NCBI GenBank assembly: GCA_947458145.1 | Contig: CANGYM010000001.1 | Location: 1 to 53,680 of the forward strand | From: Alphaproteobacteria bacterium | GTDB lineage: Bacteria > Pseudomonadota > Alphaproteobacteria > JAJTHO01 > CANGYM01 | Direction of reading: 5' to 3' | DNA: 53,680 bases | Shown: piece by piece, positions 1,439-23,161 of the stretch | How the letters are laid out: every line of letters begins with the position of its first letter | How positions within the stretch are numbered: position 1 is the first letter of the stretch | The notes under the pieces: model-generated | Told to the model about the DNA's origin: nothing | Seen by the model: the letters and a program-made list of their open reading frames with translations, nothing else | The model's database searches: none | Made by a program: the position numbers and the translations under genes

Positions 1439-2551
<1,113 letters not shown>

Positions 2552-2561
2552 AAACGGCGAA

Positions 2562-2584
2562 GGGGCAGGTTTTTGGCCTGCCCC
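2562..2584. terminator. GC-rich hairpin between convergent mreB and a small minus-strand ORF
   Basis: GGGGCAGG-TTTTTGG-CCTGCCCC is a perfect 8-bp stem. On the minus strand it is followed by TTCGCCGTTTTT. There is no T-run on the plus strand. Confidence 0.5.
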
Positions 2585-2595
2585 CCCTAAAGGGC

Positions 2596-2799
2596 CTATC
2601 CCTTTTGGGTCTCTTGAGGTATATCAAGGGTGATGACCCTTGTTGCAAGGCCACCGGAAGGGGCCACTTGTAGGCATTCCCATCCTTCTGGGACCTCGAT
2701 GGCAATTGAGGCCTCAAAGGGGGAAGATACTTTATGATCCCCTTTACCTAAACTGCCGCGAGTGAACTGGCACTCGAGGCAGAAAGTGATTTGAGCCAT
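2596..2799 (-). CDS. Hypothetical 67-aa protein, no family recognised
   Basis: The ORF sits in an otherwise empty 435-nt gap. Its stop is 12 nt before the 2562-2584 hairpin. The product has 3 Cys (CLEC...C). No clear Shine-Dalgarno. Confidence 0.3.
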   Translation of the reverse strand: MAQITFCLECQFTRGSLGKGDHKVSSPFEASIAIEVPEGWECLQVAPSGGLATRVITLDIPQETQKG

Positions 2800-2830
2800 T
2801 CAAAGAAGTGGCGAGTGTGCCCCCTGATTA

Positions 2831-2878
2831 TGATGTGATGTGATGTGATGTGATGTGATGTGATGTGATGTGATGTGA
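2831..2878. repeat. Pentanucleotide microsatellite (TGATG)x9 plus TGA, equal to (CATCA)n on the minus strand
   Basis: Direct reading shows five consecutive 10-nt blocks tgatgtgatg from 2831, ending tgatgtga at 2878. The last unit plus the flanking sequence forms the palindrome ATGTGA-A-TCACAT (2873-2885). Confidence 0.97.
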
Positions 2879-2986
2879 ATCACATTTTGGAAATTTTTTT
2901 GGGGCGTCCACTGAAAACCACAGGAAAACCATGGCGGCGGGGGCAAGGGTCTTTCCCCATAGGCAACCTTCGCCTATAGTGGCGTT

Positions 2987-4699
2987 ATGACCCTGAACGA
3001 TGATTTTTTGGAACGTTTGCGTGAATCCGTGCGGATCGAGGATGTTATCCGCGCCCGCATCCCCCTGAAAAAAGCAGGACATGAGTATAAGGGGTTATGT
3101 CCGTTTCATACCGAAAAAACCCCGTCCTTTCACGTCATTCCCAGCAAACAATTTTTTCATTGCTTTGGCTGTGGCGCCAGCGGTGATGTGATTAAATTTG
3201 TGAAGGATTTTGATAAGGGGGGATTTTTAGCAGCGGTGAAAACACTGGCGGATCTGGGGGGATTGACGATACCCACAGCGGAAACCGCCCCCGCCCCTGC
3301 TGAGGATACGCGGTATTTTACGCTGTATGAACAGGCCAGTGCCTTTTATCAACATACCTTGGCCAGCGACGGCGCCGCCCAGCGGTATCTGACCCAGCGG
3401 GGCATAACCGCCGCCAGTGTGAAACACTTTTCTTTGGGCTTTGCCCCCGATGCATGGGATGCCCTCAGCCGGTTTTTGATGACCAGAGACCACCGCCCCC
3501 ACGATATGGTGGAAGCAGGGCTGTGCGTTCAAAAGGATCTAAACCGCGCCCCCTTTGACCGTTTTCGGCACCGTTTGATGTTTCCCATCCAAAATCGAAA
3601 AGGGAAAGTTGTGGCCTTTGGGGGCCGAACCCTGCCCGGGGGGGGCGTTACGGATCATGCCGATGCCCCAAAATACCTGAATTCCCCAGAAACAGAGTAT
3701 TTTCAAAAAAACCGGATGCTCTATGGGTTGTTTCAGGCGCTGCCCACGCTGAGAAAAACCCGCCGCGCCACCGTGGTTGAAGGGTATACCGACGTTATCC
3801 TGTTGCACCAACAGGGTTACACCGATGCCGTGGCCCCGCTGGGGACGGCGTTTACGGAAACCCAAATGTCCATCCTGTGGTCCTTGGTGGATCAGATTGT
3901 GGTGTGTTTTGATGGGGATGCCGCCGGCATGCGGGCAGCCGAGCGCTGCATCCAGCGTATTTTGCCGGATTTGCGCCCCGAAAAATCCATCGCCATCATG
4001 ATGATGGATGTCGGCGAAGACCCCGCCAGCCTGATGGCCGCAGGGGGACAGGCCCGCTGGGATCAAATGCAAAATCATCCCCTGTCGATTCTGGATTTTT
4101 GGATGTGGATTCATCGCCAAACCTTGGCCGGATCAGGACACGACCGCGCGGCCCTGATGAAACAGCTGCTTTCGGATTGCGACGTGATTCGGGATCCGGA
4201 CTTAAGGGCTTTTTATAAACAAGATATTCGGGATCGTTTTTACCACGCGCGACGCGTCCCCTCAGCATTGTCAAAAAAACAACCCTTTGCGGGGATGGGG
4301 GGGCCCCTGCCCTCCCCCAAAGCCAATTTGGATCGGATGTGTTGCGCCCTGCTGGCGGATTTGGCCCATCATCCAGAGTGGTTAGAAGATGCCGCGGAAC
4401 TTTTGGGGCATTTGACGTTTCCCAACCCCCTGATTGATGCCATTCGGGGGCGCGTGGTGGACATGGCGGTTCAGGGACTTGACAAAACAACAGACCAACC
4501 CTATATCAATCCATCCCAGTGGATTCAGAATGCGCTTCCGGCGCTGGAACTTTGGAAATCAGACGCTGTCATGCCCCAGTTGTTTTTAAAGCCATCCCAT
4601 GATGTTTATGATCTTTGGCATGAAAGTTGTCTGAAACTGAAACGAAGTTTAGACCTGTCTCAATCTCGGCAAAAAAAGGCCGGAAGGCCCCTGCGATGA
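2987..4699 (+). CDS. dnaG: DNA primase
   Basis: CHC2 zinc finger CPFHTEKTPSFHV...FHCFGCGASGD and TOPRIM motifs (EGYTDV, FDGDAAG). It lies directly upstream of rpoD, the conserved dnaG-rpoD pair. Confidence 0.95.
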   Translation: MTLNDDFLERLRESVRIEDVIRARIPLKKAGHEYKGLCPFHTEKTPSFHVIPSKQFFHCFGCGASGDVIKFVKDFDKGGFLAAVKTLADLGGLTIPTAETAPAPAEDTRYFTLYEQASAFYQHTLASDGAAQRYLTQRGITAASVKHFSLGFAPDAWDALSRFLMTRDHRPHDMVEAGLCVQKDLNRAPFDRFRHRLMFPIQNRKGKVVAFGGRTLPGGGVTDHADAPKYLNSPETEYFQKNRMLYGLFQALPTLRKTRRATVVEGYTDVILLHQQGYTDAVAPLGTAFTETQMSILWSLVDQIVVCFDGDAAGMRAAERCIQRILPDLRPEKSIAIMMMDVGEDPASLMAAGGQARWDQMQNHPLSILDFWMWIHRQTLAGSGHDRAALMKQLLSDCDVIRDPDLRAFYKQDIRDRFYHARRVPSALSKKQPFAGMGGPLPSPKANLDRMCCALLADLAHHPEWLEDAAELLGHLTFPNPLIDAIRGRVVDMAVQGLDKTTDQPYINPSQWIQNALPALELWKSDAVMPQLFLKPSHDVYDLWHESCLKLKRSLDLSQSRQKKAGRPLR

Positions 4700-4764: not shown

Positions 4765-6858
4765 ATGGCCGAAAAAAAACATTTGGATACCATGGAAACT
4801 GAAGAGGTTTTGGGATCTTCGGGGATTTTAACCTTTGAAGAATCCTTTAAAAAACTTCGGAAAATTGGAAAGCTCAAAGGCTATATCACCTACGATCAAT
4901 TAAACGATATTTTGCCAACCGAGGCCTTTTCGTCCGAACAAATCGACGAAGTCATCGCCAAAATCGGGGCCGCGGGCATTGATATCGTGGATGATGATGA
5001 TCTGGAGGGTCTGGAGGAAGAAGAAACCGCCAAAAACAAACGGCGCAAACCCACCGACGATGATGATGACGGTGATGGGGGATCTTCAGAGGCCTTTGTC
5101 GGCGAAGAGCGCACATCCGGAAACATCGATGATAGTTCGGTTTCCCACTATGATGACCCTGTTCGGGTGTATCTGTCCGAAATGGGCAATAAGGGCCTGC
5201 TATCCCGCGAAGGTGAGGTCGAAATTGCCAAACGGATCGAGGCTGGTCGTGAACGCATGATCGGCGGGATTTGTGAAAGCCCCCTAACCATGCTGGCCAT
5301 CAGTGCGTGGTATGATGCCTTGACTGAAAACAAAATTATGCTGCGGGATGTTATTGATTTGGAAGCCACCTATGGGGCTGACGGCGAGGCACCGGCAGAG
5401 TTATTGGAAAGCTTGCTGCCCCCTGAAGAATTAAAAAAAGACGATGAATCCCCAGCCACGGAAGATGTGCGTGCTGAGCCCGAGTCTTCCCCTGAATCCC
5501 CCGCGACAGACGAAACCGAAGAAAACGCAGAAAAACCTGCCCGAGACGCTGATGAGGACGAAGACGACGAAGAGGATACCGAGGGTTTTGGTGTGTCCCT
5601 GTCTGCCATGGAAGAGCGTTTAAAACCCCAAGTTTTGGAAACATTCAAAAAAATCAGTCTGGTTTATGAAGATTTACGGGCCCTGCAGGAAAACCGTATT
5701 GAACTGTTACAAAAAGGCCACACGCTGCAACCAACGGAAGAAGAGGCCTATAACACCAAACACAAAGAAATCGTCACGCTGCTGGAAAGCATCCATCTGA
5801 ATAACGAACGTTTGGAACAGTTGGTGGAACAACTGTATGGCATGAACAAATCCCTGATGCAGCAGGAAGGGAAGCTGTTGCGTCTGGCCGAAAAATGCAA
5901 AATCAAACGCAGTGACTTTTTACAAAGCTATTTTGGATCCGAACTGGACCCCACATGGGTGGATCGCATGGCGGATCGCAAATCCAAGCCTTGGCAGATG
6001 TTTATTGAAAAATACTGCGATGAAATTACCGCAACGCGGGAAATGATTTCGGAAATTTCCGCCCAAAGCGGCCTGCCCATTTCGGAATTTCGCCGCGTTG
6101 TCCAAACCGTTCAGCGTGGCGAGCGGGAATCCAACCGTGCCAAAAAAGAAATGATCGAGGCCAACCTGCGCCTTGTCATCTCCATTGCCAAAAAATATAC
6201 GAACAGGGGACTGCAATTTTTGGATCTGATCCAAGAGGGCAACATTGGCCTGATGAAGGCCGTGGATAAATTTGAATACCGCCGAGGCTACAAATTTTCC
6301 ACCTATGCCACATGGTGGATTCGTCAGGCCATCACACGGTCCATCGCCGATCAGGCCCGAACCATTCGGATCCCTGTTCATATGATCGAAACCATCAACA
6401 AAATTGTGCGCACATCGCGCCAAATGATGCATGAAATTGGCCGCGAACCCACACCCGAGGAATTGGCGGTCAAGCTGCAAATGCCGCTGGATAAAGTGCG
6501 CAAAGTTATGAAAATCGCCAAAGAGCCCATCAGTCTGGAAACGCCCGTGGGGGATGAAGAAGACAGCTCCCTTGGGGATTTCATTGAGGATAAAAACACC
6601 ATCATTCCGTTGGATGCCGCCATTCATGCCAACCTGAAGGACACCACCACCAAAATCCTCTCCACCCTGACGGCCCGTGAAGAGCGCGTTTTGCGGATGC
6701 GTTTTGGTATCGGCATGAACACGGATCACACGCTAGAGGAAGTGGGCCAGCAATTCTCGGTCACCAGAGAGCGTATCCGCCAGATCGAGGCCAAAGCCCT
6801 GCGGAAACTGAAACACCCCTCGCGGTCCCGTCAGCTGAGAAGTTTTTTGGATACATGA
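4765..6858 (+). CDS. rpoD: Primary RNA polymerase sigma factor (sigma-70) with a long acidic non-conserved insert
   Basis: Regions 2-4 are recognisable: [52 protein letters not shown] and [28 protein letters not shown]. The acidic D/E-rich stretch spans about residues 215-270. Confidence 0.97.
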
Positions 6859-21940: not shown

Positions 21941-22411
21941 TTAGCCGTTTGTATTTCCTTGCCATTGAAGAAATCCTAGGGCTACAGACCCAGAAGACTG
22001 AACAGGTTGGGTGTTGTTTTTTGGTGAATCAGGGCAAAGGACATAAACGGCCCTTTCCATAAAAGACAACACTTTTGGTATATCATGTGATCCGATTGGG
22101 GATAGCAATGCGGGACCCTTTGCATCTCCCTGTGAAGCAACAACTGTTCCTGTTTTGTCAAAGCCCACAGAAAATTTGTTCATCCTGTCGTGATAACGAA
22201 CAGAACTTTGGCCATTAAGAAAGCTGTCACCGTCTGAACATGACCCCCCATGGCGCGTAATTTCACCGTGAATGTCCCTCAGACGCTGGGAATTGGAAAC
22301 ATTCTCCTCGTGCCTAGGATCCTTAAAATATTGTCCCCCCCCCCCCCACACAGCCAACACAGCAGCAACACCAGCAACACCAGCCATCAATTGGCTTCTA
22401 GAAATCCCCAT
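21941..22411 (-). CDS. Secreted hypothetical protein, paralogue A (156 aa), carrying the poly-G tract
   Basis: It has a signal-peptide-like N-terminus MGISRSQLMAGVAGVAAVLAVW and two Cys (SCSDGD, VLCPDS). It shares the 5' control region and motif order with 22517-23086. The coding sequence is AT-rich. Confidence 0.6.
   Translation of the reverse strand: MGISRSQLMAGVAGVAAVLAVWGGGGQYFKDPRHEENVSNSQRLRDIHGEITRHGGSCSDGDSFLNGQSSVRYHDRMNKFSVGFDKTGTVVASQGDAKGPALLSPIGSHDIPKVLSFMERAVYVLCPDSPKNNTQPVQSSGSVALGFLQWQGNTNG
22335..22347. repeat. Homopolymeric tract C13 (G13 on the coding strand) within codons 22-26 of the 21941-22411 gene
   Basis: Direct count gives ttgt + 13 c + aca. The coding strand reads TGG GGG GGG GGG GGA (W G G G G). 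Confidence 0.95.
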
Positions 22412-22473: not shown

Positions 22474-22489
22474 TGTGACGGATGTCACG
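22474..22489. promoter_or_regulatory. TGTGA-N6-TCACG near-palindrome (core GTGAC-N4-GTCAC), copy 1
   Basis: tgtgacggatgtcacg lies 63-78 nt upstream of the ATG at 22411. It is embedded in a 25-nt block (22465-22489) identical to 23137-23161. Confidence 0.5.
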
Positions 22490-23145: not shown

Positions 23146-23161
23146 TGTGACGGATGTCACG
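23146..23161. promoter_or_regulatory. TGTGA-N6-TCACG near-palindrome, copy 2
   Basis: The same 16-mer lies 60-75 nt upstream of the ATG at 23086 and 56-71 nt upstream of the divergent dnaB start. Confidence 0.5.

Follow-up and report, generated by a model that had tools for sequence, protein, structure and literature searches.

We describe a perfect pentanucleotide microsatellite, (TGATG)x9.6, that lies between a small minus-strand gene and the divergently oriented primase gene dnaG on a 53,680-nucleotide contig (CANGYM010000001.1, referred to here as the window) of the alphaproteobacterial assembly GCA_947458145.1. The array is hypermutable, its length differs between strains that are otherwise nearly identical, and it is embedded in a conserved module that recurs at several loci of the same clade, with a CRP-type palindrome at one end of the repeat and a −10-like hexamer at the other. 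On balance we favor a model in which the array is part of the promoter of the small gene and would act as a half-turn on/off switch, moving a CRP-type activator site relative to the −10.

Length variation of the array

The array is by far the strongest tandem repeat that Tandem Repeats Finder reports in the window, and a 15-nt piece of it, with up to two mismatches allowed, occurs eight times, always at the array, where shuffled sequences give an expectation of 0.06. It ends 109 nt before the ATG of dnaG (2987) and starts 32 nt from the ATG of the small open reading frame (ORF; 2799). An earlier note on this DNA, made from its letters alone, had given these distances together with the perfect (TGATG)x9.6 array and a 13-nt palindrome at 2873-2885, and all of them are correct as judged by the sequence and by Tandem Repeats Finder. 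The features of the array and its flanks are listed here, with the gene strand being that of the small ORF.

2596-2799, minus strand: small orphan ORF of 67 amino acids, from the ORF list, with no signal peptide; the module's proposed target
2800-2826, minus strand: predicted leader, including the G-run (CCCCC on the plus strand, 2820-2824) and the predicted transcript start
2827-2832, minus strand: −10-like hexamer CATAAT at the junction of array and flank, from a promoter scan
2831-2878: (TGATG)x9.6 pentanucleotide microsatellite, (CATCA)n on the gene strand; Tandem Repeats Finder period 5, 9.6 copies, 100% matches, score 96
2869-2884: CRP-type palindrome TGTGA-N6-TCACA, on the gene strand AAATGTGA-TTCACA-TCACA; the distal half is conserved flank, and the N6 and proximal half are array
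2873-2885: 13-nt palindrome ATGTGA-A-TCACAT, a side effect of how the array is phased at this locus
2885-2910, minus strand: upstream block, on the gene strand TGGACGCCCCAAAAAAATTTCCAAAA; identical in all alleles of the dnaG locus, including the most divergent, L082

Across 22 records of the mreB/dnaG locus, a count that takes in the window, the array has from 2.6 to 11.6 units (13-58 nt) and is perfect in every one. The earlier note had named a repeat number fixed among relatives as evidence against its reading, and the range seen here is clearly at odds with a fixed number. Unit numbers are written n.6; with the −10 hexamer taken as positions −12 to −7, the centre of the CRP-type site falls at −(5n+11.5), and the alleles and their predicted site centres are distributed as follows.

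n = 2: 2 records
n = 4: 1 record (L084)
n = 5: 3 records, one of them truncated by a scaffold gap; site centre −36.5
n = 6: 9 records, the commonest allele; site centre −41.5
n = 7: 3 records; site centre −46.5
n = 9: 2 records, the window and L001; site centre −56.5
n = 10: 1 record; site centre −61.5
n = 11: 1 record; site centre −66.5

Copy number differs within lineages, and the closest comparison is that of the window and L001, both with 9.6 units, against L085 with 6.6 units, where there is no mismatch in 5,000 flanking nucleotides. L088 and L095 have 6.6 and 10.6 units respectively with six mismatches in 3,122 nt, and L091 and L094 have 5.6 and 6.6 units with 30 mismatches in 4,081 nt. 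The repeat is therefore truly hypermutable: it changes at a much higher rate than the DNA surrounding it, with length polymorphism far above point divergence. Two attributes by which contingency loci are recognized are found together here, namely a perfect repeat that is open to slippage and length polymorphism between very close strains.

We also note two observations on arrays of this kind. In L089 the borders of the hypervariable slot that holds the small gene coincide exactly with those of a 100-N scaffold gap (1485-1583), which starts where mreB ends and stops inside the array; several slot alleles occurring together in that sample would be expected to leave such a gap. Along with the differing n of assemblies of one strain, this gap may hint at reversible switching within a clonal population. 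In a Metamycoplasmataceae metagenome-assembled genome (MAG) and a Pseudomonadales MAG (loci L113, L123, L131, L133, L141, L149, L164 and L165) there are very long (TGATG)n arrays that reach hundreds of nucleotides, and these are unrelated to the module.

Anatomy of the predicted promoter module

Read on the gene strand, the module consists of an A-tract, a gap of 5-8 nt, AAATGTGA-N6-TCACA, the rest of (CATCA)n, a −10-like hexamer, a G-run, a leader of 20-35 nt, about 21 nt in the window, and the ORF. At the dnaG locus the flanks are essentially invariant across alleles, with CCCC[C/T]GATT[A/G] on one side of the array and ATCACATTTTGGAAATTTTTTTGGGGCGTCCA on the other. The first 10 nt of the array provide both the N6 spacer and the promoter-proximal half-site of the palindrome, and because of this the CRP-type site is present at any copy number. 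Of 30 module instances, 28 contain TGTGA-N6-TCACA without a mismatch and two have CGTGA (four of five and five of five positions in the two half-sites) at equal spacing; the conservation of the 16-mer holds even though array phases and junction bases differ among modules. Exact sites of this form number 14 in 147 kb of non-redundant clade DNA, and all 14 are at modules, compared with a shuffle mean of 0.075. The half-sites are arranged as in the Escherichia coli CRP consensus, AAATGTGATCTAGATCACATTT, and the distal half falls, together with its AAA flank, within the conserved flank.

It is this 16-mer at 2869-2884 that is conserved as a unit, and not the 13-nt palindrome to which the earlier note had given meaning. 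As a candidate operator the 13-nt palindrome was rejected, being absent from the paralogous modules, which have different junctions.

The −10 position holds CATAAT, CACAAT, CATAGT or TATAGT in every module instance examined (the 30 and, in addition, L220), and the modules, with the exceptions of L152 and L091/L094, conserve (C/T)AAT with a G-run after it. The promoter scan finds no good −35 in the module, the best having four of six positions, and the sole sigma-70-like match between 2400 and 3200 points to the small ORF and places its −10 on the edge of the array. The A-tract is seen as T7 at 2894-2900 on the plus strand, and in most paralogous modules it lies 5-8 nt upstream of AAATGTGA; it is a candidate UP-element-like docking site for the C-terminal domain of the RNA polymerase alpha subunit. 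A sigma-32-like reading of the left flank (CCCCAT-like, plus strand) was rejected, in that its −35 would fall in the variable leader of the small gene and the promoter would also fire into the array. Short-array copies of the module were not found in the window, and the flank motif is without a second copy there.

The leaders between array and ORF have features of their own. Those of L084, L086, L088 and L091-L099 are conserved with the form TAATCAGGGGG..CTTACCAGCCCCGTTGCTGGTTGCTCC-ATG although their ORFs belong to different families; in L088, for example, this leader is the 46 nt between array and ATG. It contains a 6-bp hairpin, ACCAGC/GCTGGT, with a variant stem CCAGCC/GGCTGG in L084 and L099, and no Shine-Dalgarno sequence near the start codon. 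In leaders of the L083/L102 type, a stem CCACT/AGTGG changes to TCACT/AGTGA in a compensatory manner.

Spacing of the site and a proposed switch

E. coli CRP activates class II promoters from −41.5, where it replaces the −35, and class I promoters from −61.5, with an activation periodicity of ~10.5 bp (PMC6301791). The −41.5 spacing is that of nine of the 22 records of the dnaG locus and of six of the ten paralogous instances with an exact site; in the modal allele 29.5 bp separate the site centre from the first base of the −10, which lies downstream of it.

These geometries suggest a plausible mechanism, which depends on a predicted transcription start, on a −10 assigned from its sequence, and on the binding of an activator and a resulting effect on expression, both of which are postulated. 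Slipped-strand mispairing would add or remove 5-bp units, and with every unit the position of the activator site with respect to the −10 would change by half a helical turn, the units beyond the first 10 nt making up the whole distance to a −10 that is without a good −35. At n = 6 a CRP-type activator centred at −41.5 would replace the −35 in a class II configuration and the promoter would be on. At n = 10 the site would have the class I position (−61.5), and lengths of 10 or 12 may perhaps also be activatable. At odd offsets, such as that of the window (n = 9, −56.5), the activator would be on the wrong face of the helix and the promoter is predicted to be off. The window's allele is thus the off form, as predicted, and that of L085 (n = 6), an assembly of the same strain, is predicted to be on. 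A small beta-sandwich protein that evolves fast would in this way be switched on and off (or between high and low expression) at random, heritably and reversibly, with repeat switching added to whatever signal the activator senses.

The design of such a switch is easy to read, with a 5-bp unit corresponding to half a turn, a half-site that is regenerated at any length, and the commonest allele at the class II position. The earlier note had also proposed a half-turn spacing shift, and this part fits the anatomy of the module, but it was attached to the wrong gene.

Modules at other loci

The module is not confined to the dnaG locus. A scan of 185,579 species genomes for at least six TGATG units gave 105 stretches, and among the matches listed, 80 of the 105, at least 13 stretches come from five clade MAGs at non-dnaG loci. 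A module-specific pattern added a sixth clade MAG; matches to this pattern outside the clade and on one viral contig were rejected as chance, with 10-19 nt of repeat each. At the paralogous modules there is always a leftward small ORF that starts 30-50 nt from the array. These ORFs are mostly of 50-80 amino acids, and some are tiny membrane proteins. The rightward genes at modules are unrelated (dnaG, a tetR-like gene and gcvT), and because these vary while the leftward small ORF is constant, the proposed switch belongs to the small divergent gene. At the locus next to the tetR-like gene the ORF behind the module is P0012, which is related to the ORF of the window, and module loci therefore share ORF families.

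CRP-type sites are also present in the window without an array, upstream of two genes for secreted proteins.

22474-22489, minus strand: array-less CRP-type site TGTGACGGATGTCACG, on the gene strand CGTGACATCCGTCACA; upstream of secreted-protein ORF 21941-22411, with TAGGAT at class II spacing
23146-23161, minus strand: second, identical site TGTGACGGATGTCACG; upstream of paralogous ORF 22517-~23086, with TATGGT at class II spacing

Both sites are upstream of leftward genes and have a TAnnnT hexamer at class II spacing, and the two ORFs are paralogous, with signal-peptide-like N-termini. The 16-mer of both sites is conserved in relatives though the genes vary from 150 to 236 amino acids, the site at 23146 being present in seven of seven relatives. 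The TGTGA half-site that the earlier note had seen in common between the array and the secreted-protein promoters is thus present at these two sites, and they probably belong to one regulon with the array modules. As a separate observation, a C13 homopolymer at 22335-22347 (G13 on the coding strand) lies inside the 156-residue secreted-protein ORF and encodes a glycine run. Relatives have C9, C12 or no tract at this position, and in the one case checked the length change is offset by a neighbouring 2-nt difference that keeps the frame; the homopolymer is a second hypermutable tract of the window.

The small gene and its locus

The array lies in a gene order of efp and thiE (minus strand), mreB (1445-2551, plus strand), a hairpin, the 67-residue minus-strand ORF, the array, dnaG, rpoD and a comM-like gene. 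The components that flank the module are as follows.

1445-2551, plus strand: mreB
2559-2587: G+C-rich hairpin between the mreB stop and the small-ORF stop; terminator-like site and left border of the hypervariable slot
2987-4699, plus strand: dnaG (primase), with Pfam Zn_ribbon_DnaG, DNAG_N and Toprim; neighbour of the module, not its target
4765-6858: rpoD, after dnaG and followed by the comM-like gene

The proposed target of the module is itself unusual. A phmmer search with the 67-residue ORF matches 11 repeats of a 3,503-residue DUF11/SpaA protein (E = 2e-25) as well as the 75-residue stand-alone protein P0012, and on these matches the window's ORF is a stand-alone form of the SpaA/CnaB-type prealbumin-like beta-sandwich repeat of giant surface proteins. 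Its homologue in L002 has 42% amino acid identity, with a ratio of nonsynonymous to synonymous divergence (dN/dS) of 0.41.

The slot in which the gene resides (window 2588-2830) extends from the mreB terminator to the array and is a single-gene islet, as seen by comparison with L002 and L082-L102. Between strains whose mreB and dnaG are 97-99% identical the slot is 40-60% identical, which is effectively unalignable, yet every lineage has a minus-strand slot ORF of 67-117 amino acids that starts 29-46 nt from the array, with GTG or TTG starts in some. The slot ORFs form several families that are weakly linked by sequence. Within these families dN/dS is 0.3-1.2, compared with about 0-0.1 for mreB and dnaG, and synonymous divergence (dS) is as much as tenfold higher in the slot than in dnaG next to it (0.45 versus 0.043 for L088 and L096). 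Because the synonymous divergence of the slot is far above that of its flanks, the data suggest that the slot alleles are old and are exchanged by recombination. The idea that the slot is an integron cassette found no backing, in that attC-like repeats were not seen on inspection without a formal test.

Searches of Pfam, PADLOC and PHROGs gave no family for any slot ORF, and a word-indexed search of 5.8 billion proteins returned four relatives of the C-type ORF and none of the window's ORF. AlphaFold2 models of slot ORFs are of low confidence and mostly beta (pLDDT 59 and 64), and we claim no fold from them; Foldseek against the PDB gave nothing below E = 0.9.

The hairpin at 2559-2587 is likely a bidirectional terminator. 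It is kept in relatives, and the sequence to its right is not. No Rfam model matches any part of the window at gathering score, nor does one match 2540-3010 at the permissive threshold of E<=1. DnaG, MreB and RpoD proteins identical to those of the window are found on freshwater metagenome contigs, and MAGs of uncultured Alphaproteobacteria, from Lake Mendota among other places, are the nearest genomes. The next DnaG relatives have less than 45% identity, and the lineage is therefore an isolated one.

Alternative explanations

Several other models have been considered. One set keeps the array in the promoter of the small gene without class II geometry, with the repeat acting either as a distal rheostat like that of nadA, or as a multi-site platform of TCACA motifs whose effect scales with n. 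The array does present TCACA half-sites every 5 bp, and the wide spread of n (2-11) is rheostat-like; the nadA tract, situated upstream of its core promoter, gives low, medium and high states with a regulator bound on both sides (PMC2791445). However, the array described here abuts the −10, and this leaves no room for a separate downstream core promoter. The platform version also encounters the difficulty that there is one inverted half-site and hence one possible N6 dimer site. We give models of this type a small but real chance.

A neutral mutational hot spot, at which the tract slips and expression is unaffected, would reduce the conserved flanks to those of an ordinary promoter or operator. 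It accommodates the half of the alleles whose positions have no predicted activity, and paralogous TGTGACATCCATCACA-type sites suggest that the repeat could arise by expansion of the site itself. It does not readily explain why six MAG species keep perfect arrays at several loci, in each case between the site and the −10, or why the commonest spacing is −41.5. Moreover, the tract fills the distance from activator to −10, so by the spacing rules a change of length must alter promoter geometry. We therefore think neutrality unlikely.

We have also considered a conventional spacer model in which the A-tract is followed by a −35 of TTCACA (the flank T and the first unit), a spacer of 5n−4 nt, and the −10 CATAAT. 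The promoter would be on only at n = 4, where the spacer is 16 nt, and at other lengths it would be off, or weakly active from an in-array ATCACA. L084, with n = 4, has TTCACA-16-CATAAT with a score of 10/12, and the in-array ATCACA-16-CATAAT of the window scores 9/12; tracts between −35 and −10 are also the commonest architecture of promoter-type phase variation (porA, opc, fetA; PMC2791445). Nonetheless, n = 4 is seen in one of the 22 records and the mode is n = 6, and TTCACA is not conserved in the paralogous modules, whereas the N6 palindrome is. We find this model doubtful.

The earlier note had presented the array as a control element of the dnaG-rpoD operon, and the array could be imagined to tune that promoter, or both divergent promoters, through spacing, since it lies in the divergent intergenic region 109-156 nt upstream of dnaG. 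However, dnaG has a −10-like element of its own.

2975-2980, plus strand: dnaG-proximal −10-like TATAGT, 6 nt before the dnaG ATG; independent of the array module

This TATAGT is conserved in all relatives, including L082, with TATACT in L003. L003 has dnaK upstream in place of the small ORF and is without an array, but the dnaG-proximal −10 is kept. In seven records an insertion of ~230 nt between the module and this −10 is tolerated, and the −10 stays with dnaG; in these seven the array is 341 nt from dnaG, where most records have 105-111 nt. Because the proximal −10 is kept without the array and past the insertion, expression of the essential dnaG is independent of array spacing. The paralogous modules adjoin unrelated rightward genes, and direct reading of the plus strand reveals no −10-like hexamer at activator spacing. 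The array is not part of the dnaG promoter and dnaG is a bystander, so that tuning of dnaG-rpoD by the array is very unlikely. The lesson is that adjacency to an essential operon is not to be over-read.

Two observations in this region are of separate interest. The inserted element (L088 1426-1665; present in L086, L088, L093, L095, L097, L099 and L100) is ~230-240 nt long, highly structured (minimum free energy −93.5 kcal/mol), and 98-100% identical among the seven records. It has no Rfam match and no other copy in the clade DNA compared, and it looks like a miniature inverted-repeat transposable element or a structured RNA. At 2975-2989 of the window, there is no Shine-Dalgarno sequence between the dnaG TATAGT and the ATG, an arrangement conserved in all relatives, which suggests that the dnaG mRNA may be leaderless.

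Finally, the notion that the copy-number differences are assembly artefacts, which draws on the short-read metagenomic origin of all the data, the approach of the 53-58 nt arrays to a k of 55, and the L089 scaffold gap that ends in the array, is scarcely credible, since most arrays (13-48 nt) are below the k-mers and reads used (L085, with a 33-nt array, is a k141 contig) and the differences are of whole units in more than 20 independent assemblies from several pipelines (JGI, ENA, NCBI, Logan).

Returning to the class II switch that we favor, a number of considerations weigh against it. The −10 was assigned by consensus alone, and every site-position number depends on this predicted element. 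No candidate regulator emerged: tblastn searches of ~285 kb of clade DNA, a small fraction of these genomes, with E. coli CRP and FNR had no match at E<=1. CRP-type TGTGA specificity is not known to be common in Alphaproteobacteria. About half of the alleles, including that of the window, are at positions predicted to be inactive, which would be expected from phase variation and equally from neutral drift, and a mutational equilibrium could account for the n = 6 mode. Because the modules are homologous to each other, the recurrence of −41.5 among them does not amount to fully independent observations. Copy numbers of at least 10 (53-58 nt) are near short-read assembler k-mer lengths and may be imprecise. 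The window's 67-residue ORF is also the shortest of its kind and is left uncalled by public pipelines (L001, L085).

Relationship to known systems and significance

Phase variation through simple sequence repeats in promoters is already known. What is distinctive here is the half-turn unit, the use of the repeat as a CRP-type half-site, the multi-locus freshwater family, and the hypervariable orphan targets. The proposed switch resembles the fimbrial-subunit promoters of a human pathogen (PMC1891110), in which tract length affects transcription and the paralogous promoters of one genome share an architecture. In that system, however, the tract is a homopolymer that changes in 1-bp steps, whereas the module of the uncultured lake bacterium has a pentamer and moves in half turns of 5 bp; a response regulator is the activator in that system, whereas the lake module has a CRP-type palindrome with one half-site drawn from the repeat; and the targets there are fimbrial subunits, whereas those of the lake module are small orphan proteins. 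The function of the tract is demonstrated in that system and predicted in the lake module.

There are parallels too with Neisseria meningitidis nadA (PMC2791445), which has a multi-nucleotide promoter repeat, states that differ in the spacing of regulator sites, and stochastic switching on top of a signal-responsive regulator. The TAAA tract of nadA is distal to a complete core promoter and is flanked by NadR operators, with a repressor and IHF taking part (PMC2791445), whereas the lake-module tract abuts the −10 and its site is activator-like, at class II spacing. The −35/−10 tracts of N. meningitidis porA, opc and fetA (PMC2791445) are similar in that repeat length alters promoter geometry. 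Alleles of such tracts cluster at a working spacer of 16-18 bp, whereas the lake tract, at 13-58 nt, is mostly far longer and is without a conserved −35. The TA repeats of Haemophilus influenzae hifA/hifB are tracts between −35 and −10 as well.

The closest likeness in promoter anatomy is to the class II CRP promoters of E. coli (e.g. galP1, −41.5), which have TGTGA-N6-TCACA, an AAA flank, no −35, and A/T-rich DNA upstream. The lake module differs from these in its alphaproteobacterial host, in a regulator that is predicted from its site, and in a geometry changed by slippage, the E. coli promoters being without a microsatellite.

Nearly all known examples of repeat-driven phase variation come from host-adapted pathogens, and our literature search returned no paper that joins simple sequence repeats, phase variation, metagenomes and freshwater. 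It is possible, although we put this forward tentatively, that the clade has a genome-wide 'phasome' in which the CRP-type sites of a family of promoters have expanded into (CATCA)n, and these promoters are gated by both signal and repeat and drive exchangeable, hypervariable small genes. Those genes, each the only one of a slot between housekeeping genes, would encode tiny membrane proteins or beta-sandwich domains that stand alone, and the switching would provide bet-hedging for a target of diversifying selection, such as one involved in phage or predator interaction, in planktonic bacteria.

If the proposed switch is correct, it would mean that uncultured lake bacteria use contingency loci, which have hardly been described in planktonic bacteria, and the combination of a CRP-type site, a pentamer array and a −10 would offer a signature with which to search metagenomes. 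It would also point to tiny hypervariable proteins as the targets of strong fluctuating selection.

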